Positions 1-63,700 of a DNA stretch of 64,000 nucleotides are shown one piece after another. The stretch covers positions 181 through 64,180 of the forward strand of contig JAEEOQ010000099.1 of assembly GCA_016284355.1 (NCBI GenBank), read 5' to 3'. Within the stretch, counting starts at the first letter, position 1. Every line of letters starts with the position of its first letter. The position numbers were made by a program, and so were the translations under genes. The stretch comes from Lachnospiraceae bacterium (GTDB lineage: Bacteria; Bacillota; Clostridia; Lachnospirales; Lachnospiraceae). The notes under the pieces were generated by a model. It made no database searches. It had not been told where the DNA came from and saw nothing but the letters and a program-made list of their open reading frames with translations.

Positions 1-195
1 GATAACTACGTCTGTTATTGATGTTTCATCAACTGTAATAGTAACGGTAACATCTCCGCCAAAACCGATCTCGGTAGCAGAATAAGTACCAGGGGTATAT
101 GAAGCTGCTTTAACTACTTTGCTTCCGGCAAAACTCTGAAGGATAACTGCAAGTGAGAGAAGCGCCATAGCGAAAAGTTTAATCTTTTTACTCAT
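1..195 (-). CDS. Secreted FMN-binding (FMN_bind-like) domain protein, N-terminal part only; the gene runs off the window start
   Basis: The minus-strand ATG at 193-195 overlaps the rnfE stop by 1 nt. My translation is MSKKIKLFAMALLSLAVILQSFAG (signal-like), then ...GFGGDVTVTITVDETSITDV, which resembles the FMN_bind domain core. It is not in the ORF track because it is truncated. Confidence 0.55.
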   Translation of the reverse strand, partial: MSKKIKLFAMALLSLAVILQSFAGSKVVKAASYTPGTYSATEIGFGGDVTVTITVDETSITDVVI

Positions 196-938
196 TACTT
201 TGTCTCCTCCTTTGCTGCCTTGGCTGCCTTAGCTGCCTCTGCCTTATTTTCAAGGATCTTTGCGTGGTTTTCAGCACAAATGGCTGCAGAACACTGATCG
301 CATCTTCCGCCGCAGCCTGCTGTGGCAACTACGCTGCCGTTTGTAGCGCTCTTAAGCTTGAACTTGTTCTGAAGAGCGGTAAGACAAGCAAGTACAAGGA
401 ATGCACCCGGTGCCTTTGTAAAGATAGCGATAGGCTCGTAATTGCCCGGCATGATCTGGAAACCAAAGATTGTTCCGGCACCGATAAGCTCTCTTACGAT
501 AGCTACGCTTGTAACACCGATGGTGAAACCGATACCCATACCGATTCCGTCAAAGATCGAAGGAAGGACAGGGTTCTTACTTGCATAAGCCTCTGCACGG
601 CCAAGAATAATACAGTTAACAACGATAAGTGGAATAAATACTCCAAGTGCGTCGTTAAGATCTTTAAAGTAAGCCTTCATAAACATCTGAACGATAGTTG
701 TAAATGAAGCAACAACTACGATGAAGGCAGGAATTCTGACACCGTCAGGAATAACCTTACGAAGTGCAGAAATAATAGCATTTGAACATATAAGAACTAC
801 TGCTGTTGAAAGACCCATACCTACAGCGTTTTTAGCGGATGTGGTAACAGCAAGTGTAGCACACATACCAAGCATAAGAACGAAGGTAGGGTTTTCTTTG
901 ATGATACCGTTATATAAACGTTCTAAACATTTTTTCAT
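195..938 (-). CDS. rnfE: Rnf electron-transport complex subunit E, with an extra Cys-rich C-terminal tail
   Basis: Polytopic membrane protein with RnfE/NqrD-type motifs (NPTFVLMLGMCATLAVT, IPLIVVNCIILGRAEAYASKN). It sits after rnfG in an rnfC-D-G-E order. Confidence 0.9.
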   Translation of the reverse strand: MKKCLERLYNGIIKENPTFVLMLGMCATLAVTTSAKNAVGMGLSTAVVLICSNAIISALRKVIPDGVRIPAFIVVVASFTTIVQMFMKAYFKDLNDALGVFIPLIVVNCIILGRAEAYASKNPVLPSIFDGIGMGIGFTIGVTSVAIVRELIGAGTIFGFQIMPGNYEPIAIFTKAPGAFLVLACLTALQNKFKLKSATNGSVVATAGCGGRCDQCSAAICAENHAKILENKAEAAKAAKAAKEETK

Positions 939-4917: not shown

Positions 4918-6189
4918 TCAATCAAGTGAAAGTATATTTTTCACAAAATCCGCGTCAAGATTGCATTTGATCCGTTCCTTCATACCTTCCGCGCGGTAGA
5001 GGTGATTGAAGTAGTAGGCATTTGCAAGGGCTCTTGCTTTATGCATCCTGCAGATAAAGGTGGTTCGCTTGTCCGGCGTTCCGTAGCAGGTGTAATTGCC
5101 GGCGCTGCACCAGGCGCAGCCCTTTGCCACAGGGCAGTTATAGCACTCATCGGTGCTCTGAGACCGTCTTGTTATACAGTTCATGCATTTTATGCGGGAC
5201 TGCTCAAGGGGCCTTTTCCCGATACCGTTTTTAATGTCCCCTATGGTAAATGGCGGATACTTGTCTCCCACAGAGCTTTCCATGTAGCGAAGACACGGAA
5301 ACAGCTTACCGTCAGGGTCAATTGCCAGCATTTTCCCGGTGCCGCCGCACCAGTTCTCGTTGTCATCTTCTCCCATAGGCTGAAAAAAGTATTCCTCAAA
5401 CAGCGAGACATAGATTTTTTCGTAAAGCTTTTCTCTTATCATTAGATCTGCGATCTTCTTCAGTTCTCTGTAAAAGATCTTCTCGTCCCCTTCTTGCCAC
5501 ACATCTTCAAATACGCAGTTTGCATATATGTCGCGATACCCAAGCTCTATCATGTTAAGCACCGCATCGTAAAGATATGGCAGGTTCTCATGAGAAATAG
5601 TGATCTTAGAGCCAAAATTCCTGTCGGTTTTAAGCATATCAAGGGCCGGCTTTATGGCAAGGTCATAGCTTCCTCTTCCGTCAGGGAACTTTCGGCATGA
5701 GTCGTGAAGCTCTTTATTGCCGTCTATGGTAACGGTGTAACTTAGGTGATGTTCATGTTTTTTAAGAAACGCCTTTACCTTCGGGGTATAGATGGTGCCG
5801 TTTGAAGTTATAGAGACCATCCACCTGTCTTTGTATTTCATATCTCCCGTAAGGGTCTTTTCCTGAAAATAGTCAATTATCTCGTCCATAAGGTCAACAG
5901 CAAGCATAGGCTCGCCCCCGATAAACTCAAGGATAACCCCCGGCAGATGTTTTATATCAAGGTAATCATCAAACCCCTTATCTCCCGTAAAAAGAAGGTC
6001 GATAAATTTCTTTGCAGTCTCAATGTCCATGACCCTGTGGCCTTTGCATATCTGGTAGCAGTACGTACAGGCCAGGTTGCAGTCATCTGTTACCTGCAGC
6101 GTTATGGTCTTTACTATGCCCTCTTCCTTTAATACCGTATTTACAAAATCTCCGAATTCCTGTGCTCTCTTATATAGCTTCACGTGCAT
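4918..6189 (-). CDS. Radical SAM / SPASM-domain peptide (protein) maturase
   Basis: Cx3Cx2C motif in VTDDCNLACTYCYQ. The C-terminal SPASM-like cysteine cluster reads WCGGTGKMLAIDPDGKLFPC ... CMNC ... CYNCPVAKGCAWC. It is adjacent to a cysteine-repeat protein. Confidence 0.9.
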   Translation of the reverse strand: MHVKLYKRAQEFGDFVNTVLKEEGIVKTITLQVTDDCNLACTYCYQICKGHRVMDIETAKKFIDLLFTGDKGFDDYLDIKHLPGVILEFIGGEPMLAVDLMDEIIDYFQEKTLTGDMKYKDRWMVSITSNGTIYTPKVKAFLKKHEHHLSYTVTIDGNKELHDSCRKFPDGRGSYDLAIKPALDMLKTDRNFGSKITISHENLPYLYDAVLNMIELGYRDIYANCVFEDVWQEGDEKIFYRELKKIADLMIREKLYEKIYVSLFEEYFFQPMGEDDNENWCGGTGKMLAIDPDGKLFPCLRYMESSVGDKYPPFTIGDIKNGIGKRPLEQSRIKCMNCITRRSQSTDECYNCPVAKGCAWCSAGNYTCYGTPDKRTTFICRMHKARALANAYYFNHLYRAEGMKERIKCNLDADFVKNILSLD

Positions 6190-9785: not shown

Positions 9786-10494
9786 CTTTTTTGATTTCTC
9801 CTGTTGTTTTTTTGCTTTTAAGTAAGGCGCCAAGGGTACAGACTTCATAAACCGCAAGAAGCGGAAGCGCCACCGCTATCATGCTGAAAATATCCGGTGG
9901 GGTCATAAATGCCGCAAGAAGAAAAGCAAGCGGATACACCGCAGGTCTGATCTTCTTTAATATGGCAGACCCCACTATCCCCCTTCTGACAAGTAAAAGA
10001 AGCAAGGAAAAAGCAAACGCAAGGATCCCGCAGGAAATGCCGGCACTTAAGAGGAAAGATAACGCTTTTTCCAGCGTAAATTCAGCCCTAAGCCCCTGTC
10101 CTTCCGAAACTTTTATAAAGAGCCTTACTGCAGCGTATACAAGAAATCTTACTCCGCAGATTGCCCCTGTTATGAAGGCCGCAAAAGGTGCGATCAAAAG
10201 TCTTTTTTTGACGCGGATCTGCAGATAGGATGCCAGAGAAAACAGGGCAAACGGGGCTGTCAGCACAAGGGCCGATACCGCAGCCAGATTTACGCCGCTT
10301 ACAATGATCTCGACAGGTGATAACATACGTATATCAAGTCCCATCTTTTTTGACTCATTTACAATTGTTTTAAGTATTTCCGGAGATAAAATGTAAAATA
10401 AGATAAACAGAATTCCCCAGATAATAAGACAAAAAGCTGTTTGCTTTCTTGCTTCTTTAATATGTTCGCCCACGGTCATAAGGTCATCTTTCAT
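9748..10494 (-). CDS. tatC: Twin-arginine translocase subunit TatC
   Basis: Six-TM protein with the characteristic TatC motif region (AFMTPPDIFSMIAVALPLL) and a typical N-terminal amphipathic segment (GEHIKEARK). It overlaps the end of tatA. Confidence 0.85.
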   Translation of the reverse strand: MKDDLMTVGEHIKEARKQTAFCLIIWGILFILFYILSPEILKTIVNESKKMGLDIRMLSPVEIIVSGVNLAAVSALVLTAPFALFSLASYLQIRVKKRLLIAPFAAFITGAICGVRFLVYAAVRLFIKVSEGQGLRAEFTLEKALSFLLSAGISCGILAFAFSLLLLLVRRGIVGSAILKKIRPAVYPLAFLLAAFMTPPDIFSMIAVALPLLAVYEVCTLGALLKSKKTTGEIKKDEKTDNSHSSCP

Positions 10495-10691: not shown

Positions 10692-11035
10692 CCCGTAATA
10701 ATGTACAAAGTTTTTTGCGGGAAAGGCCTCTTAAATCTTTGTACAAATTGACGAAAAAGTATTTAGTTTTACATATTTTACTTTCAAGCAACTGACATGG
10801 GCCCCGGGCGTAAAGCGTGGATTTTGGCTGATTTAAGAGGTACGTGATTTTTATGAACAATAGTAATTTTGGACGTCGAAAACATCAGGCTTGACAATAT
10901 TTGATGTAAAAGTCGGAAACGCTTGCAGTTTGGGGCTTTTCGGCAAGAGCGATTAAAATAGATCAAGCCGCCATGGATTTTTTATCATCTCTGGCGGCCT
11001 TATTTTTCTTTTATTTTTTGTGATCTACCCCGGGG

Positions 11036-12055: not shown

Positions 12056-12135
12056 TGCGGGTGACAGGACTTGAACCTGCACGCTCTCGCACAAGAACCT
12101 AAATCTTGCGTGTCTGCCAGTTCCACCACACCCGC
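12056..12135 (-). tRNA. tRNA-Leu (anticodon UAG)
   Basis: The minus strand reads GCGGGTG...CAAGA-TTTAGGT-TCTTG...long variable arm...GGTTCAAGTCC...CACCCGCA. Cloverleaf arms identified by eye. Confidence 0.85.
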
Positions 12136-12140
12136 AAAGC

Positions 12141-12211
12141 TGGGCCAACTGGATTCGAACCAGCGAGTGCAGGAGTCAAAGTCCTGTGCCTTACCGCTTG
12201 GCGATGGCCCA
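12141..12211 (-). tRNA. tRNA-Gln (anticodon UUG)
   Basis: The minus strand reads TGGGCCATCGCCAAGCGGTAAGGCACAGGA-CTTTGAC-TCCTG...GGTTCGAATCC...GGCCCA. Confidence 0.85.
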
Positions 12212-12227
12212 ATAATGCTACCCGAAT

Positions 12228-12236
12228 ATTATAACA
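12228..12236 (-). promoter_or_regulatory. Candidate extended -10 promoter (TGTTATAAT) for tRNA-Gln/Leu
   Basis: On the minus strand about 17 nt upstream of the tRNA-Gln 5' end and downstream of the internal terminator. The -35 is weak. Confidence 0.4.
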
Positions 12237-12260
12237 TGATTAATCTTCGGAGTGAATAAA

Positions 12261-12299
12261 AAAGTAAAAAAATAGAGCAAAGAATTAATCTTTGCTCTA
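12261..12299 (-). terminator. Rho-independent terminator immediately after tRNA-His
   Basis: A 10-bp stem (TAGAGCAAAG / CTTTGCTCTA) with a 7-nt loop, followed on the minus strand by TTTTTTTAC. Confidence 0.65.
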
Positions 12300-12375
12300 G
12301 GGTGGATACAGGGATTCGAACCCTGGGCCTCCAGAGCCACAATCTGGCGCGCTAACCAGCTGCGCTATACCCACC
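12300..12375 (-). tRNA. tRNA-His (anticodon GUG)
   Basis: The minus strand reads GGTGGGTATAGCGCAGCTGGTTAGCGCGCCAGA-TTGTGGC-TCTGG...GGTTCGAATCC...ATCCACCC, including the extra 5' G typical of tRNA-His. Confidence 0.85.
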
Positions 12376-12416
12376 ATGATATGAAATAAGCAACACTAAT
12401 ATTGTGTTGCCCGTAA

Positions 12417-12490
12417 TGTGCCAGAAGGGATTCGAACCCCCGACAACCGGCTTAGAAGGCCGATGCTCTATCCAGCTGAGCTACTAGCAC
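12417..12490 (-). tRNA. tRNA-Arg (anticodon UCU)
   Basis: The minus strand reads GTGCTAGTAGCTCAGCTGGATAGAGCATCGGC-CTTCTAA-GCCGG...GGTTCGAATCC...GGCACA. Confidence 0.85.
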
Positions 12491-12549
12491 AAACCTACCA
12501 AGCAAAGTGATCAATGCAATGGTAATTAATATGTTTAAAAACATATTAA

Positions 12550-12620
12550 AGCGGGTGATGGGAATCGAACCCACGTATCCAGCTTGGAAGGCTGGTGTTC
12601 TACCATTGAACTACACCCGC
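12550..12620 (-). tRNA. tRNA-Gly (anticodon UCC)
   Basis: The minus strand reads GCGGGTGTAGTTCAATGGTAGAACACCAGC-CTTCCAA-GCTGG...GGTTCGATTCC...CACCCGCT. Confidence 0.85.
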
Positions 12621-12630
12621 AAGTTAAAAG

Positions 12631-12705
12631 TCGGGGTGACAGGATTCGAACCTGCGACCTCTTGATCCCAAATCAAGCACTCTAGCCAAACTGAGCCACA
12701 CCCCG
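12631..12705 (-). tRNA. tRNA-Pro (anticodon UGG)
   Basis: The minus strand reads CGGGGTGTGGCTCAGTTTGGCTAGAGTGCTTGA-TTTGGGA-TCAAG...GGTTCGAATCC...CACCCCGA. Confidence 0.85.
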
Positions 12706-12745: not shown

Positions 12746-12774
12746 ATTATATATGATGAATTGTTTATTGTCAA
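12746..12774 (-). promoter_or_regulatory. Consensus sigma-A promoter for the tRNA operon (TTGACA-17-TATAAT)
   Basis: The minus strand reads atgTTGACAataaacaattcatcataTATAATatttc, about 40 nt upstream of the tRNA-Pro 5' end. Confidence 0.75.
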
Positions 12775-12822
12775 CATAAAATTTAAAAAATTACAAATTT
12801 TTTTCTTTACATTTTTTTGTTG

Positions 12823-12846
12823 CACAGGTACCTGGTACATATGTCA
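12823..12846. repeat. Palindromic-element family, copy 1 (single arm: CACAGGTACCTGGTACATATGTCA)
   Basis: It matches one arm of the 64-bp palindrome at 18163-18226. Its terminal TCA is the stop codon (TGA) of the minus-strand gene 12844-13320. Confidence 0.7.
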
Positions 12847-13320
12847 AATGTAATTGATGTTAAAGAAGGGATTATCATGTTGGTCAAATTCAAGGAGCAT
12901 ATAGCTGTGTTTTCCGTCTTCCTGGCGAGGAGAGGTAACAGAGCCGGGATTAGCCACGCAGATATCTCCGTACTCCACATACGGCACGTGGGTATGACCG
13001 TAAAGGGCGATATCACAGCCCCGGTCTTTTGCCGCGTCTTTAAGCATCTCTGTGCCAAAGCCAACATGGTAAGCGTGACCGTGTGTGATAAATATGCGGT
13101 GTTTACCGACCTCTATAACTTCTTCTCCCGGCAGGCTTACATCAAAGTCACAATTACCCCTTACCATATGGCAGGGGCAATCAAACCAGGATCTTATAAA
13201 GTCTGCATCGCTTATTACATCGCCAAGATGGATCATCATATCCACCTTACCGACTCTTTCAACTACATCCTGAAGATACCCGAGTAGACCGTGGGTATCA
13301 CTTACTACAAGTATTTTCAT
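12844..13320 (-). CDS. YfcE/MJ0936-family metallophosphoesterase
   Basis: MKILVVSDTHG ... HLGDV ... GNCD ... THGH ... GHTH motifs of calcineurin-like phosphoesterases. 158 aa. Confidence 0.85.
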   Translation of the reverse strand: MKILVVSDTHGLLGYLQDVVERVGKVDMMIHLGDVISDADFIRSWFDCPCHMVRGNCDFDVSLPGEEVIEVGKHRIFITHGHAYHVGFGTEMLKDAAKDRGCDIALYGHTHVPYVEYGDICVANPGSVTSPRQEDGKHSYMLLEFDQHDNPFFNINYI

Positions 13321-13937: not shown

Positions 13938-15206
13938 TTATCTTCCCTCTTCCTCGTAAGCCTTTAATATCGCAGCGTAGATCCCGTCTGCAATAAGCTC
14001 GATATTTTTTTCATCCTGCAGCATAGCAAGATCGTCAGGATTTGTAAGGTAGCCAATCTCAAGTAAAGCTACCGGCACCTTGCTGTGCCCTATTATAAAT
14101 GTGGTAGAGCCCATTCTAAGGCCACGGTTTCTGTTGTTAAGCCTTCCCACAACCTCATTTAAAAGGAGGGTCGCAAGCTCTTTAGAATCCACATTACCGT
14201 CTGTTTCAAGCAGTTCATTGTATAAAACCTCAGTTCCGTAGGCCCACCTGTTGTAGTAGGCGTTGTTGTGTACGGAAACAAAGTAATCGGCCTCAGCCTC
14301 ATTTGCAAGGGTTACACGCGGTAAAAGGTATACGGACGAGTCGTCTGTGCGGGTGTAAAACGCCTTGATGTCTGTCTGGGCGTCAAATCTTTCTTTTATC
14401 TTTTTGATGATCTCAAGGTTAAAGTCTTTCTCAAGATACTTTCTGTCGTTACTCATAGTACCGGGGTGCTTTCCGCCGTGACCGGCATCAAATACCACGA
14501 TCTTGTCGTAAACTTCTTTTGGATTTTTAAGGTCGATGTAATAATTTGCCTCATCCTCATATAAAACAGGGATGTAAAGATGGTCTGTAGTAAGGCTCAT
14601 CTTAGCTATCTCTGAGGCTTCATCGTACTCTATGTTTACTGCGCGAACAAGGTCTTCAGGGCCTTCTTTTTTCTCATTTTCGATCTTAAGATCTTCTGCA
14701 TCGATCTTATCAAGGTCAGCAGGCTCTTCATCATCATAAAGGTACTCGTCTTTGTATACCTCAAGGTGCGCCGTGTCGGCTTCGCCCGTAAATTCCTTGC
14801 CCTCGCTGTATCTGCGCACACACATGTTGTCCCAAGTAAGTTTGGTTACGCCGGTTGCTTTAAGGGTTATCACTCTGTAAAGGTAATCCTCATCTATAGC
14901 AAGTTCTGCAGTCCCGTCCGAACCGTTCTTTGGGATAATAAGATAGCGTTTGCCAAGCTTTTCCACCATTTCTTCTTCGCGGCTTACAGGTTCAGGCTCA
15001 GGCACCGGTTCAAGCTCAGGTTCTTCTTCATTTTCCTCAACGCCAATTAAGGAAGTCTCTTCTACGACTTCCTCGCTGCCGGCCATAACAACACCGGGAG
15101 TATTCTCTTTTGTGACATACGCCGAAAAGATCAGCATGAAGATCATAAGCAGCACGCTGTTTCCGGCGGTGCGTTTAAGGAGTTTTGAATCCAACCCTAT
15201 CACCAC
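13938..15206 (-). CDS. N-acetylmuramoyl-L-alanine amidase (Amidase_3) with N-terminal membrane anchor and acidic linker
   Basis: The C-terminal domain carries VVFDAGHGGKHPGT ... FVSVHNNA ... LLEIGYLTN, typical of the CwlB/AmiC type. The first codon appears to be GTG, so the start is uncertain. Confidence 0.85.
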   Translation of the reverse strand: MVIGLDSKLLKRTAGNSVLLMIFMLIFSAYVTKENTPGVVMAGSEEVVEETSLIGVEENEEEPELEPVPEPEPVSREEEMVEKLGKRYLIIPKNGSDGTAELAIDEDYLYRVITLKATGVTKLTWDNMCVRRYSEGKEFTGEADTAHLEVYKDEYLYDDEEPADLDKIDAEDLKIENEKKEGPEDLVRAVNIEYDEASEIAKMSLTTDHLYIPVLYEDEANYYIDLKNPKEVYDKIVVFDAGHGGKHPGTMSNDRKYLEKDFNLEIIKKIKERFDAQTDIKAFYTRTDDSSVYLLPRVTLANEAEADYFVSVHNNAYYNRWAYGTEVLYNELLETDGNVDSKELATLLLNEVVGRLNNRNRGLRMGSTTFIIGHSKVPVALLEIGYLTNPDDLAMLQDEKNIELIADGIYAAILKAYEEEGR

Positions 15207-15288: not shown

Positions 15289-16218
15289 ATGGGGGTGTTT
15301 TTATTGGAGACAGGTAATTTAACAGTTAAACAGGCTGACGGTTTTAACACAAAGGTTTTTTCCTACCTTTCAGATACGCCTAAGGCCAGCCTTGTTATTT
15401 TTCACGGAATGGCAGAGCATCACGAAAGATACGATGACTTTTGCAGATTTCTTTGCGAGAACGGTTTTGACGTATACATTTACGACCACAGAGGCCACGG
15501 CAAAGACACCAAACTTGAAGATCTTGGCTTTATTGCCGAAAAAGACGGCGACAAGCTCCTTACCGGAGATGCCGTAAATGTGGTAAATACAGTAAGGGCG
15601 CAGTCACGTACCAAAGATTTCTTTGTTTTTGGTCACAGTATGGGTTCCTTTATTTGCAGAGTCGTTATTCAGGAAATCTGCGACATAAACGGTGCCGTTA
15701 TCTGCGGTACCAACTACCCTGACGGCGCCACAAAGGCAGGCGGGCTTTGCATCACTGCTCTTGCAAGAAAATTTAAGGGAGCTAAGAAGAAAGCTCCGGG
15801 GCTTAACAAGTTCATGTTTGAAAACAAAGACTATCTTTCGGTTTCCACAAGGACCGTTATGGACTGGCTGTCCCGCGACAACACTGTGGTTGGCCAGTAT
15901 ATAAATGACCCGTATTGCGGTTTTGTCTGCACCAACTCTTTCTACCACGACCTTATTGCGGTCATTACTCAGGCCGCAAAGAAGAAGGCTCAGCTAAAGA
16001 CGAGAAAGGACTTTCCGATGTTCTTTATTGCAGGCGCCAAAGATCCTGTGGGTGGCTTTGGAAAGCAGGTTGATGCTCTTGTTAAGTTCTATAACAAGAA
16101 CGGCTATACCGCCGTGAAGGAAAAGATCTACCCTGAATGCAGACATGAGCTACTAAATGAACTAAACAAAGAAGAAGTTTATAATGACGTACTGACATGG
16201 CTTAATGAGAATATTTAG
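15289..16218 (+). CDS. Alpha/beta hydrolase (lysophospholipase / monoacylglycerol lipase-like)
   Basis: HGMAEH oxyanion region, GHSMGS nucleophile elbow and a C-terminal histidine region (ECRHELLNE). Confidence 0.8.
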   Translation: MGVFLLETGNLTVKQADGFNTKVFSYLSDTPKASLVIFHGMAEHHERYDDFCRFLCENGFDVYIYDHRGHGKDTKLEDLGFIAEKDGDKLLTGDAVNVVNTVRAQSRTKDFFVFGHSMGSFICRVVIQEICDINGAVICGTNYPDGATKAGGLCITALARKFKGAKKKAPGLNKFMFENKDYLSVSTRTVMDWLSRDNTVVGQYINDPYCGFVCTNSFYHDLIAVITQAAKKKAQLKTRKDFPMFFIAGAKDPVGGFGKQVDALVKFYNKNGYTAVKEKIYPECRHELLNELNKEEVYNDVLTWLNENI

Positions 16219-16724: not shown

Positions 16725-16751
16725 TGACATATGTACCTGGTACATGTGTCA
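16725..16751. repeat. Palindromic-element family, copy 2 (collapsed form: TGACATATGTACC-T-GGTACATGTGTCA)
   Basis: It shares the TGACATATGTACC terminus and its inverted partner with the other copies. Intergenic. Confidence 0.6.
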
Positions 16752-16774: not shown

Positions 16775-16910
16775 AATCCTTGATCTGCTTAACTGCAATA
16801 TATCCGGCGCGGAAGGTTTGTCAATCCTGCGCTTTGCGCACCGCGAAGCGGCTACGGGATTGACAGACATTACGAGCCGGATAAGATTGTAATTAAGCAG
16901 ACCAAGGATT
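16775..16910. repeat. Nested-hairpin element of about 135 bp, copy 1
   Basis: Outer 18-bp stem (AATCCTTGATCTGCTTAA / TTAAGCAGACCAAGGATT, 1 mismatch), middle stem (TATCCGGC / GCCGGATA) and inner stem (TGTCAATCC / GGATTGACA), with a TGCGC-TTT-GCGCA tip. Same architecture and conserved blocks as 63569-63700. Confidence 0.7.
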
Positions 16911-16937: not shown

Positions 16938-18029
16938 CTATTTTGTAAATGTACGGGTTTCTGTTTCAAAGCCTGTAGCTCTTACTTCTACTGTATGCTC
17001 TCCCGGCGCAAGGTTTTCTGTTTCGATCCAGTTTGCATATACGCCGTCTCCATTTACAAATGATTTTGCAGGTGTTACTTCCACACCGTCAATGAGAATT
17101 GTTGCCTGTCCTTCTGCATATTTGTTAAGTGAGCAAAACAGGTACTCTGTTCCTTTTACATTTCCTATGTAGGGACTTCCACTGATAAGTACATCAAATG
17201 GAACATGCATGAAAATATATTCTTTGGTTTCATATCCTTCTGCCGAAATATATACATGGGTTCCCTGATCCTGCTGTACATCCGTAATATCTATCCAAAG
17301 AATATAGTCACCATCCCCACTTATAAAAGAATCAAATGGCTCTACTTCTTCTTCAAGTCCAAATGTTATTTTTACTATGTCCTTTACTGCCGGGTTAAGT
17401 GCAATGTACAAAGTATTATCTCTGGCAAATGGCTCGAAAGAACCGATCAAACCATCAAAGGATGGTGCCTTATATGTAAAGCTCCATTCATAATCGTTAT
17501 AGCCGTCTTTAGTTATTTTTAATGTGTGCTTTCCTTCTGAAACCGGCTCATTAAAAATAACATATGACTTTCCCTCTTCATCGGTAGAGACTTCGTTATT
17601 ATTTAATGCTTGTCCGTCAATATAGTAGCTACAATCCGGTACTAATTCGCCCACATATCTAAATCCGGAAGCATCACCAAGACAGCTAAAACTGTCCTCT
17701 TTATATCCAAATTCTTTTTTAATTTCCTTCACAGTTACTATGCAGGTGTACTTCTTCTTAGTAGTCTTATTTGTAGCAACGATTTTCGCAGTACCCGCTT
17801 TAACTCCGGTTACCTTTCCTTTCTTTGTGACAGTGGCAACAGTCTTATCAGAAGACTTCCATGTAACATTTTTTGCGCCACTAAGCTTTAAACTGACGCT
17901 CTTTCCAGCATTAACAGTAACTTTCTTTTTGTTAAGTTTAACTGCAGCATTAACCTTTGTAGTAGGAACTACTGTAAGGAACATTGCAAAAAACAATACT
18001 GCCGCTACAATCATTTTTCTAAACTTCAT
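16938..18029 (-). CDS. Secreted protein with one Big_2 (bacterial Ig-like group 2) domain and a repeated C-terminal region
   Basis: Signal peptide MKFRKMIVAAVLFFAMFLTVVPTTKVNA. Big_2 signature KKKVTVNAGKSVSLKL...SSDKTVATVTKKGKVTGVKAGTAKIVA. Confidence 0.8.
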   Translation of the reverse strand: MKFRKMIVAAVLFFAMFLTVVPTTKVNAAVKLNKKKVTVNAGKSVSLKLSGAKNVTWKSSDKTVATVTKKGKVTGVKAGTAKIVATNKTTKKKYTCIVTVKEIKKEFGYKEDSFSCLGDASGFRYVGELVPDCSYYIDGQALNNNEVSTDEEGKSYVIFNEPVSEGKHTLKITKDGYNDYEWSFTYKAPSFDGLIGSFEPFARDNTLYIALNPAVKDIVKITFGLEEEVEPFDSFISGDGDYILWIDITDVQQDQGTHVYISAEGYETKEYIFMHVPFDVLISGSPYIGNVKGTEYLFCSLNKYAEGQATILIDGVEVTPAKSFVNGDGVYANWIETENLAPGEHTVEVRATGFETETRTFTK

Positions 18030-18128
18030 AAACGCCCTCCTTAAGGCAAAACAAAAAAAACAGTTGGCGTCATTATAACATGGTTACATTTTTATATCAA
18101 TATTTTATTTGGCATTATTTCTTGTAAC

Positions 18129-18158
18129 CAAAAAGCAGAACCTTATGACTCTGCTTTT
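18129..18158 (-). terminator. Rho-independent terminator downstream of the patatin-like gene
   Basis: A 9-bp stem (AAAAGCAGA / TCTGCTTTT) with a 10-nt loop and a T-run on the minus strand. Confidence 0.55.
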
Positions 18159-18162
18159 AAAA

Positions 18163-18226
18163 TGACATATGTACCAGGTACCTGTGTAAAAAACGTTTTT
18201 TACACAGGTACCTGGTACATATGTCA
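18163..18226. repeat. Palindromic-element family, copy 3: perfect 64-bp palindrome
   Basis: TGACATATGTACCAGGTACCTGTGTAAAAAAC | GTTTTTTACACAGGTACCTGGTACATATGTCA. The terminal TCA (18224-18226) is the stop codon of the patatin-like gene. Confidence 0.85.
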
Positions 18227-19078
18227 TAGTTCTGAGTTCAGAAATGCTTTCAGGGCTTCGAGTTTTTCGGTCATGACTTGTCTGCCGATATCATAGGCAG
18301 CCTGGAGTTTTTCAGGGTCATGCTCTATTCTGCCGACAGGTAGCTTGGCGGGCGGAGCAATCACAAATGCTTTGCCCTTTTTCTCCTGCTCTTTTACGTA
18401 CTCTACTTCCCTGTTGTACATCTTGTGGCGTCTTTCGAGGGCCTTTATCATGCCAGGGTATTTCCTCAACGAAACGTCTGTAAGAAGCTTAAAGGATGAA
18501 GGCTTTTTGACGTAATCCACAGGCTGGGTGCGGACCACCACATTTTTGGTATAGCCCTCATCTTCCATAAATTTTAAAGGAATAGAGTCTGATATCCCGC
18601 CGTCAAGGTATTCCTTATCGCCGATCTTTACAGGCTTTGAAACCATAGGCATAGAAGCAGATGCCTGCATCCATTTAATGGCTTTTCCCCTGCAGCTTTT
18701 TAAGTTTACATATACAGGGCTGCCGGTGGTGCAGTCAGTAGCCACAACGTAAAACGGCATAGGATTTGACTCATAAGTGGCATGGTCTATCTTGTCAAGA
18801 TCTTCAGGTATGTCCTCGTAGCAAAACTTTACTCCGAAAATATCGCCTGTTAAAAGGAGCGACGTAAAGGAACAGAATCTTGGATCTATTGCAAATCTTT
18901 TGCAATACCTAAGCGGTCTTCCTATCTGTTTTGACTTATAATTGCATCCAAATGTGGCTCCGGCGGAAACTCCGATGGCTCCGTCAAACCAGATCTCATT
19001 TTCCATTAAAACATCAATAACTCCGGCGGTAAACATGCCTCGCATTGCTCCGCCTTCAAGTACAAGTCCGGTCTTCAT
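18224..19078 (-). CDS. Patatin-like phospholipase
   Basis: GLVLEGGAMRG glycine-rich oxyanion motif, GVSAGA nucleophile motif and a DGG Asp motif (YLDGGISD). I place the start at MKTGLVLEGG (ATG at 19078), preceded by AGAGGAGAG. Confidence 0.85.
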   Translation of the reverse strand: MKTGLVLEGGAMRGMFTAGVIDVLMENEIWFDGAIGVSAGATFGCNYKSKQIGRPLRYCKRFAIDPRFCSFTSLLLTGDIFGVKFCYEDIPEDLDKIDHATYESNPMPFYVVATDCTTGSPVYVNLKSCRGKAIKWMQASASMPMVSKPVKIGDKEYLDGGISDSIPLKFMEDEGYTKNVVVRTQPVDYVKKPSSFKLLTDVSLRKYPGMIKALERRHKMYNREVEYVKEQEKKGKAFVIAPPAKLPVGRIEHDPEKLQAAYDIGRQVMTEKLEALKAFLNSEL

Positions 19079-19113
19079 GTCATACTCTCCTCTTTGTTTT
19101 TTCAAAATTAAAT

Positions 19114-58381: not shown

Positions 58382-58493
58382 GGGCCCACTTCTCCTTATA
58401 ATTAAAAGTATCCATCCTGAGTATTATAACAAAGAGACGTCAAGAAGTAAAGAAAAGACAGAATTGTTAAAAAAGCTGTAACATATAAATATA

Positions 58494-58547
58494 ACATATG
58501 TACCAGGTACCTGTGTAAAAAATTTGCACGGGTACCTGGTACATATG
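58494..58547. repeat. Palindromic-element family, copy 4 (imperfect)
   Basis: Reads ACATATGTACCAGGTACCTGTGTAAAAAATTTGCACGGGTACCTGGTACATATGT. It lies 9 nt downstream of the stop of the minus-strand response regulator gene. Confidence 0.8.
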
Positions 58548-58555
58548 TAAAAAAA

Positions 58556-59332
58556 TTATTTAAGCATTTCTTTTATCCTTTTTTTCTCAAAGAATTCGTC
58601 TACATAAGCGATTATCTCTGCAGGCTTCATGGTTTTTAAAAGGTAGCCCTCGGGCTTTAGCGATACAACCTTTGCCACGCTTTCCTTATCGTTCTTGCTT
58701 GTAAGGAACACAACGGGCACGTCTGCAAATTCACTTTCCGAGCGTATCATTTCAAGAACCTGCTTGCCGTCTATTACAGGCATCTCATAATCAAGGAGCA
58801 CCAGATCCGGCCTGTTTATGGCAAGGTATTTTATGGCCATTGTGCCGGAATTTGCAAGGATAACCTGATATTTCCCTTCAAGCCAGCCCTTTACGTTTCT
58901 AAGCATTGCACCCGAATCGTCTACCACAAGGATCTTCTTTTTCCCGCTCTTGCCGTTATCTTCAAGGTATTCTGTGATCTCAGATACCATGTCCGTAACG
59001 TTTATCGGCCTGTTGTATTTTTTGATGATGCTCTGATCCGATATGATCTTGCCTATGCTTGATAGTTCGTCGGAATCTCCCACTACAAAAAGCGGCGCAT
59101 CTTTTTCAAGAATCTTATCTCTTATAAATACAAGGGCCTGCTGGTCTGAAACAAGCTTTTCATCAGAGTATATGATCGCTGCTTCAAGCTCGTCTTTTAC
59201 CGCATCGATCTCTTTTATCTTCCCTGAGGTGACGATCGCCTTACAGCCCTTTTCCTCGAACTTGCTTTTTATCGACGCCGTTATGTACCCTGCCTGGTCC
59301 GCTATTATCAGTATATTCTTTACTTCGTTCAA
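58556..59332 (-). CDS. Response regulator: degenerate N-terminal receiver-like domain plus a canonical REC domain, no output domain
   Basis: The second half reads KKILVVDDSGAML ... DLVLLDYEMPVIDG ... GYLLKT. The start is TTG at 59332 with an AAGGAGG RBS. Confidence 0.8.
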   Translation of the reverse strand: MNEVKNILIIADQAGYITASIKSKFEEKGCKAIVTSGKIKEIDAVKDELEAAIIYSDEKLVSDQQALVFIRDKILEKDAPLFVVGDSDELSSIGKIISDQSIIKKYNRPINVTDMVSEITEYLEDNGKSGKKKILVVDDSGAMLRNVKGWLEGKYQVILANSGTMAIKYLAINRPDLVLLDYEMPVIDGKQVLEMIRSESEFADVPVVFLTSKNDKESVAKVVSLKPEGYLLKTMKPAEIIAYVDEFFEKKRIKEMLK

Positions 59333-63568: not shown

Positions 63569-63700
63569 ATCTTGATCTGCTTAACCAACCAAAATCTGCC
63601 GCAGGCTGCATGTCAACCCCTTAGCCGCGGTGCGGTGCGCTATGCGCAGGGTTGACACTCGGCCTACGGCAGATAAATTAGCACTTAAGCAGATCAAGAT
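63569..63700. repeat. Nested-hairpin element of about 135 bp, copy 2
   Basis: Outer 16-bp stem (ATCTTGATCTGCTTAA / TTAAGCAGATCAAGAT), middle 12-bp stem (ATCTGCCGCAGG / CCTACGGCAGAT, 1 mismatch) and inner stem (TGTCAACCC / GGGTTGACA), with a TGCGC-TAT-GCGCA tip. Confidence 0.75.

Follow-up and report, generated by a model that had tools for sequence, protein, structure and literature searches.

A probable REP-type family of palindromic repeats in cattle-gut Lachnospiraceae, associated with a RAYT-like Y1 transposase

Introduction

To our knowledge, systems in which REP or REPIN repeats are paired with a RAYT transposase have been studied almost entirely in Proteobacteria. In Escherichia coli, REPs are short imperfect palindromes outside genes, arranged singly, as inverted pairs or in clusters (BIMEs), with copies inside operons and near stop codons, and their arrays bracket the gene of the Y1 (HUH) transposase TnpA-REP (the REPtron arrangement), whose structure in complex with a REP hairpin is 4ER8. 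Another example has been described in Pseudomonas and Enterobacteria, where inverted doublets that form long hairpins, the REPINs, are paired with a repeat-specific transposase, and where repeat and enzyme diverge together (Bertels and Rainey; PMC3116915, PMC5581495). Highly abundant flanking repeats were found for RAYT Groups 2 and 3 only, and Group 1, which is also present in Clostridia, had 16-mers of low abundance (Bertels et al., PMC5581495).

A third relative is the TIRtron, in which the TIRYT protein, equivalent to TnpA-Y1 subclass 2.1, is a longer RAYT-like protein with a C-terminal helix-turn-helix (HTH) extension (Di Nocera 2013, PMC3733652; Quentin 2018, PMC6006769). The repeats that flank TIRYT genes are non-GTAG and sometimes self-complementary, and they can be moderately abundant, as dimers or clusters (Di Nocera et al., PMC3733652), and no REP-like sequences were found near subclass 2.1 genes by Quentin et al. 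(PMC6006769). More distantly, the IS200/IS605 elements IS608 and ISDra2 have the same catalytic fold, hairpin ends and a single-strand mechanism that leaves no target duplication. No paper was found in the literature that links REP-associated transposases with repeats of Lachnospiraceae or Clostridia.

Here, a family of palindromes is described that was noticed in a 64,000-nucleotide stretch of Lachnospiraceae DNA, referred to below as the window. These palindromes are probably a REP-type family of cattle-gut Lachnospiraceae, tied to a RAYT/TnpA-REP-like Y1 (HUH) transposase in a REPtron/TIRtron arrangement. The family is dispersed and turns over without target duplication, and it is linked both physically and evolutionarily to a RAYT-like Y1 enzyme.

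Palindromic sites in the window

The original prediction described a perfect 64-bp palindrome at 18163-18226, a second copy with mismatches between its arms, a "collapsed form" at 16725-16751 and a "single arm" at 12823-12846. A repeat search recovered the first of these at 18162-18227, with 33-nt arms that are 100% complementary and directly abut, and the second at 58494-58548, with 26-nt arms that are 92% complementary. The labels given to the other two were wrong, in that 16725-16751 is a complete single unit, a near-perfect 27-bp palindrome, and 12820-12846 is likewise a complete single unit, of asymmetric type (Table 1). The 64-bp palindrome is a derived, doublet form of this 27-bp unit, in which the units stand head to head; the 18176/18213 unit pair within it is 37 bp apart, an exception to the 32-bp spacing described below. 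The perfection of the 66-bp palindrome argues for recent activity or homogenisation. The core GTACCWGGTAC is present in six copies at four sites of the window, where base composition would predict 0.023, and the suggested pattern search with the 17-mer ACATATGTACCWGGTAC, allowing up to 2 mismatches, returned 10 matches in the window against 0.01 expected from shuffles.

Table 1. Units, doublets and an adjacent terminator hairpin in the window
Feature	Position	Strand	Composition
Inverted doublet, REPIN-like	18162..18227		units 18163-18189 and 18200-18226, 10-nt spacer AAAACGTTTT
Inverted doublet, REPIN-like	58492..58550		units 58492-58518 and 58524-58550, standard 32-bp centre-to-centre spacing
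Single nearly symmetric unit	16725..16751		TGACATATGTACCTGGTACATGTGTCA
Single asymmetric unit	12820..12846	minus (canonical orientation)	TGACATATGTACC-A-GGTACCTGTGCAA
Intrinsic-terminator hairpin, outside the element	18127..18157	minus	GCAGAG..TTCTGC and U-run, 4 nt downstream of the doublet (fold)

It had also been noticed that two copies supply the stop codon of the neighbouring gene, and this is borne out, as the terminal TCA of the unit ends the ORFs 12844..13320(-) and 18224..19105(-). The former is phosphoesterase-like and takes the first TGA of the asymmetric unit as its stop; the latter is patatin-like, and its TGA stop is the terminal TCA (18224-18226) of the perfect doublet. A third gene, the response-regulator-like 58556..59332(-), has its stop 5 nt from the other doublet, and the unit at 16725..16751 sits in the 720-bp spacer of the convergent genes 15289..16218(+) and 16938..18029(-). 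When the four sites were compared with the metagenome loci described below, no synteny was found beyond the element itself; the exact patatin-like protein is also encoded on an 8.9-kb metagenome contig.

Folded as RNA, the perfect doublet is predicted to form a 31-bp hairpin within a structure of -65.7 kcal/mol (z = -12.5), and the nearly symmetric unit a hairpin of -17 kcal/mol (z = -3.9). The asymmetric unit alone folds no better than shuffles (z = -0.5), which is what one would expect of an imperfect REP in monomeric form. An Rfam scan of the window returned six tRNAs only, with no match at any palindrome.

Two further observations concern the surroundings of these sites. The six tRNA genes (12056-12705, minus strand) are preceded by a perfect consensus promoter (TTGACA, 17 nt, TATAAT) at 12746-12774(-), and the asymmetric unit precedes the -35 box of this tRNA-cluster promoter by about 46 nt. 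A second repeat family, separate from the 27-bp unit, is present at 16801-16883, 50 nt from the single unit at 16725, and at 63594-63674; it is a nested inverted repeat with 27-/26-nt arms that are 85% complementary around a 29-nt loop, and its two copies have TGTCAA(T/C)CC / GG(A/G)TTGACA in common.

Distribution and structure of the unit

In species-representative genomes, a 22-nt pattern of the unit found one relevant contig, from a rumen Lachnospiraceae MAG, and two other matches that look like chance. In a metagenome collection, the same pattern found at least 80 loci, almost all of them from a few cattle-gut or rumen projects, and these loci hold 176 unit cores in 683 kb. Once the copy that led to each locus is discounted, arrays occur in the locus DNA at a density of one per 19 kb, close to the one per 16 kb of the window; as the search pattern was itself derived from the window, this density and the consensus given below are biased toward that type. 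By extrapolation, a genome of a few megabases would carry on the order of a hundred or more arrays. A phage origin was considered and dropped, since neither the unit nor its GGACCWGGTCC variant (see below) had a match in viral contigs.

The sequencing runs that contain the window are bovine-gut metagenomes. In three of these DNA metagenomes, summed unitig depth was 59-171 over the element and about 5 in its flanks, and contigs end inside the element and continue into many different flanks. Contigs from several independent cattle-gut samples (runs X1-X4, at window positions 18156-18226) end in this way, which points to systematic assembly breaks for the lineage.

From an alignment of 174 cores, taken from the window and the related loci, the basic unit is a 27-bp palindrome, TTACATATGTACC-W-GGTACATATGTAA. 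Its consensus, T(T/G)ACAYRKGTACC-W-GGTACMYRTGT(A/C)A, consists of two TACATATGTA boxes around CCWGG, and on both strands it is flanked by a T-rich run on the 5' side and an A-rich run on the 3' side. The commonest unit is asymmetric, ACATATGTACC-A-GGTACCTGTGT, and in this main type the two halves pair with a T-C mismatch and a T-G wobble. With a length of 27 bp, the unit is an imperfect hairpin-forming palindrome within the 20-40 bp range by which REPs are defined. The GT[AG]G foot of canonical REPs is absent from it, and its ends are T(T/G)ACA / TGT(A/C)A with T- or A-run flanks; the unit would therefore work like a REP without being a canonical GTAG-REP.

Among the arrays in the loci, 68 have one unit, 42 have two and 8 have three. 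Centre-to-centre spacing is exactly 32 bp in 50 of 58 cases, and most doublets are head to head, with the CTGTG halves facing inwards. These doublets are predicted to form very stable hairpins (z = -7 to -12.5).

The associated Y1 transposase and its relatives

One of the repeat-bearing loci, the 2.2-kb contig L024, carries a 276-aa ORF (83-913, minus strand) between triple unit arrays at 1-85 and 1002-1092. This ORF matches Pfam Y1_Tnp (2.3e-11, above the curated cut-off); its best NCBIfam match is NF047646, the REP-associated tyrosine transposase, at 57.5 bits, which is below the curated cut-off of 80. Its only sequence match in the PDB is E. coli TnpA-REP, at a marginal E = 0.34, and the two proteins align at the HUH and Tyr motifs. 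Across 26 aligned homologues, H86, H88 and Y145 (RYIHNNP) are invariant, and a C-terminal HTH motif, GxSxRQxxRLTGIxR, is conserved. The AlphaFold model of the protein has a mean pLDDT of 86, with helices 214-275 above 85, and a fold search of the PDB ranked 4ER8 first (E = 1.7e-6, TM 0.69), before the IS200, IS608 and ISDra2 transposases. The protein itself has a weak HTH_26 match (E = 0.03), and Bac_DnaA_C or HTH_3 domains are present in its homologues.

The transposase gene was seen once among 81 repeat-bearing loci, with none in the other 80 and none in the window. At 85% identity or more, the gene was not seen in the contigs of X1, the run that best matches the window, and it was present in X2-X4. 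The window copies may be served by a gene that is unassembled or more divergent, or they may be orphans.

Relatives of this enzyme are found with repeats of their own. The transposases of L084 and L086, 75-76% identical to that of L024, are flanked by arrays of 3-5 units of GACATATGGACCTGGTCCATGTGTC, a GGACCWGGTCC type that has the same architecture as the unit and differs from it by a symmetric stem change from GTACC to GGACC (T-to-G, A-to-C). A relative at 64% identity is followed by a different repeat, and the homologues of L087 and L090, at 33-36% identity, have their own palindromic doublets on both sides, with two further sites of the L087 family within 20 kb. These variant and private repeats around the enzymes of L084, L086, L087 and L090 indicate that repeat and enzyme co-diverge, which is a hallmark of REP-RAYT pairs.

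In L086, the transposase relative (232-977) is split into ORFs of 160 aa and 81 aa, and the near-identical gene of L084 is intact, with 252 aa; the L086 gene is possibly a frameshifted copy that still has variant-unit arrays on both sides. The L087 doublets, at 5270-5335, 9805-9878, 10758-10841 and 13987-14052, form a REPIN-like family, TGTCAGGGGGACGTACCT, whose arms are 48 nt apart. The Y1 gene of that contig sits inside a polysaccharide-biosynthesis cluster, and the contig also encodes a protein that NCBI names for a Lachnospiraceae MAG.

Position relative to genes

Although a crude ORF call assigns 89% of the locus DNA to ORFs, essentially all arrays are intergenic; ten arrays that were first scored inside ORFs lie in spurious or over-extended ones and look like ORF-calling artefacts. 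The spacers that hold arrays are tandem in 46 cases, convergent in 19 and divergent in 16, and unit orientation shows no bias with respect to the direction of the flanking genes (19 vs 22 and 16 vs 9). Many arrays occupy the whole gap between co-directional genes, leaving only the RBS, and must therefore be transcribed within operons.

Where an array side faces the end of an ORF of at least 100 codons (107 sides), the stop codon is no more than 5 nt from the array edge in 36 cases, and in 8 of those 36 it is supplied by the first TGA or TAA of the unit itself, so that what was seen in the window holds for the whole family. The TGA/TCA target preference that had been proposed is only partly upheld by these counts. 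The close stops and the unit-supplied stop codons are in keeping with it, a clean empty site without a TGA target (described below) is not, and selection for harmless positions could explain the proximity to stop codons equally well.

The same positions, together with the very stable folding of doublets and the fact that three of the window's four copies are at the 3' ends of genes, raise the question of whether the primary role of the element lies in RNA, as a terminator or 3' stabiliser of upstream mRNAs that was duplicated because it is useful, and stabilising and terminating roles of REPs are indeed cited in PMC6006769. Such a role is nevertheless improbable as the origin of the family. 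The terminator reading, which was among those first proposed, is contradicted by the AT-rich stem, by a T-run before and an A-run after it on both strands, which is the reverse of a terminator, and by a terminator scan that made no call at the element. At the perfect doublet, a separate hairpin with a U-run (18127..18157) comes after the element, followed by the promoter of the next gene (TTGATA-17-TATAAT at 18100-18072); the doublet is therefore not the terminator of the patatin-like gene, and it is within the 3' untranslated part of the patatin-like mRNA. Moreover, many copies lie between cistrons or directly upstream of an RBS, the 16 arrays in divergent spacers show that these are not avoided, and asymmetric single units fold no better than shuffles. 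In four metatranscriptomes that contain related mRNAs, depth over the element was zero, as opposed to 59-171 in DNA, a weak point in that it comes from sparse contigs, which say no more than that the element is not abundant as RNA. A role in RNA would also leave the association and co-variation with the transposase unexplained.

Common descent and turnover of the units

When the centre of the unit is read as CCAGG, the CTGTG-type half is 3' in about 60 non-redundant units and 5' in 1-2. This linkage is not an ascertainment artefact, since the search pattern permitted both arrangements, and a ratio of about 60:1 points to copying from a master sequence, as opposed to convergent evolution of binding sites.

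One rival account takes the units for phased duplex sites to which an abundant protein of the host binds, for instance a nucleoid-associated protein or a global regulatory dimer, and which are conserved by selection for binding as opposed to mobility. Each unit is indeed a strict palindrome with two TACATATGTA boxes, which are presumably similar to the TACAnnTGTA boxes of BlaI/CopY-type repressors; the array period of 32 bp corresponds to roughly three turns of the helix, A/T tracts flank the units, and the associated transposase itself has a C-terminal HTH. This account must be judged unlikely, a shade more so than the preceding one. The sites have no fixed relation to promoters, and many of them are found between cistrons or 0-5 nt past a stop codon; the linkage of centre and half is unexpected for sites that are selected independently; near-identical contigs gain and lose units; and the largest arrays stand on both sides of a transposase gene, the relatives of which have units that co-vary. 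The suggestion that the palindromes are the operator of a dimeric protein is not supported either, as there is no fixed promoter position, many copies are inside operons or 3' of genes, and the linkage indicates common descent.

The comparison of presence and absence that had been proposed was run on related metagenome contigs, and units are gained or lost between homologous pairs. One such example is L054, where one 33-nt unit sits precisely between a stop codon and the following gene's RBS; the corresponding site in L060 is empty and has no TGA target, and the insertion has ATTTT on both flanks. In a second example, a doublet of L024 is missing from L057 and from Logan contigs of runs X1 and X2, where alignment with the empty allele leaves a 59-nt gap with 5 nt of microhomology, and the empty allele retains a single TAC(G/A)CATGTAA half-unit. 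Unit number also varies within the pairs L022/L056, L027/L079 and L052/L036. Solo half-units number 8 in 667 kb, against about 0.65 expected by our estimate, which is consistent with units being deleted through slippage between their two direct boxes; several of the polymorphisms could likewise arise by slippage or recombination between direct TACATATGTA boxes.

A target-site duplication was sought with all edge definitions of 9-18 nt and lengths of 3-7. Identical flanking 5-mers were found in 2 of 101 arrays (1.0 expected), and no register gave a signal; the flanks show only a weak, diffuse compositional similarity (z about 3.5). Although two 13-nt inverted termini in each unit, ATTTT on both sides of the clean L054/L060 insertion and the diffuse excess of direct flank similarity might suggest a MITE moved by a DDE-type transposase, with the Y1 association coincidental, this is highly improbable, because no register carries a real duplication (the 2 perfect 5-mers in 101 against 1.0 expected), known MITEs are much longer than a 27-bp unit, the 683 kb showed no DDE transposase with the unit's termini, and the unit or its variant is found on both sides of three related Y1 genes. 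The broader reading of the original prediction, a REP/MITE-like mobile palindrome, gains support on its REP side: the family is dispersed, extragenic and polymorphic for presence and absence, and it flanks a tyrosine transposase of the REP-associated type.

Proposed mechanism

For a REP-type family moved by a Y1 transposase, the following series of steps can be proposed. The enzyme would recognise the unit as a hairpin in single-stranded DNA and would cut and rejoin it, a step that we infer from the established chemistry and structures of TnpA-REP and IS200/IS605 enzymes (PMC6006769). Units and doublets would then be copied into new intergenic sites without target duplication, preferentially beside existing units, giving rise to the 32-bp arrays. 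Slippage between the two TACATATGTA boxes of a unit would delete copies and leave solo half-units, and copies would survive only where they are harmless, that is, after stop codons, between cistrons, or between terminators and promoters. Retained copies would be transcribed as part of the mRNA, and hairpins within about 5 nt of a stop codon might, more speculatively, have a secondary effect on translation termination or mRNA decay. In E. coli, REPs close to stop codons have been reported to lower translation, and REPs to stabilise upstream mRNA.

Relation to described systems

The E. coli REPtron is matched in the form and arrangement of the repeats, in their placement within operons and near stop codons, in the bracketing of a Y1/HUH gene by repeat arrays, and in the enzyme, where 4ER8 is the best fold match and the HUH and Tyr motifs are conserved. 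The Lachnospiraceae unit differs from the E. coli REP in that it is AT-rich, lacks the GT[AG]G foot, is perfectly symmetric in some copies and forms arrays with a strict 32-bp period, and the L024 enzyme differs from TnpA-REP in that it is about 100 residues longer, with a C-terminal HTH, in a Gram-positive anaerobe. With the REPIN-RAYT systems, the family has in common the inverted doublets with long hairpins, the repeat-specific transposase and the co-divergence of the two, whereas in the present family singles are just as frequent as doublets, and some arrays are triplets.

The longer RAYT-like protein with its HTH extension and the non-GTAG, partly self-complementary flanking repeats are reminiscent of TIRYT systems, and from its architecture the L024 protein is inferred to belong to subclass 2.1. 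The GGGGWSAS motif of most TIRYT repeats is, however, absent from the unit; a related sequence, GGGGGAC, was seen in the repeats of the distant L087 homologue only. The catalytic fold, the hairpins and the lack of target duplication are also those of IS200/IS605, as opposed to which, with elements that move with their own gene and have distinct left and right ends, the 27-bp repeat disperses alone.

It can be suggested, tentatively and as something that is more doubtful than the REP-type assignment itself, that HTH-bearing Y1 transposases of subclass 2.1 (TIRYT-type) drive a high-copy REP/REPIN population in rumen Lachnospiraceae, which would be the first documented in Firmicutes. If so, the GTACCWGGTAC unit with the L024 enzyme and the GGACCWGGTCC unit with the 75%-identical enzyme would amount to a natural specificity swap from which a recognition code could be read, and the placement of copies at 0-5 nt from stop codons would be due to targeting or, alternatively, to a use of the hairpins at the level of the host. 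A clear and abundant repeat family that comes with its transposase, in uncultured Lachnospiraceae of the rumen, would extend REP/REPIN-RAYT systems to Gram-positive anaerobes, supply co-diverged repeat/enzyme pairs for recognition tests, explain recurrent assembly breaks in rumen metagenomes, and flag many genes that end in, or right beside, a strong hairpin. No new kind of system is revealed; what is new here is a Gram-positive example with natural co-diverged pairs.

Composite sites

Some units are joined to other sequences. In a doublet at L015:5253-5348, the units are 69 nt apart instead of 32, and the space between them holds an additional G+C-rich hairpin, AAGCCCATACC..GGTATGGGCTT; it appears that this REPIN-like pair either picked up a terminator-like stem-loop or was split by one.

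At seven sites, a unit or half-unit is followed 3 nt on by a perfect DnaA-box 9-mer, TTATCCACA, then by AAAATG and then by a hairpin. Full units are present at L067:4227-4300, L067:4910-4985, L062:800-866, L070:1250-1348 and L041:1440-1492, and half-units at L067:5880-5930 and L062:2470-2520. The stem of the hairpin varies yet stays complementary (GACCGCT..AGCGGTC vs GATCACTT..AAGTGATC) around the loop CCCCGGCTT. This module looks like the end of a second repeated element that has been joined to the palindrome family, and a DnaA-C-like HTH is present in some of the transposase homologues.
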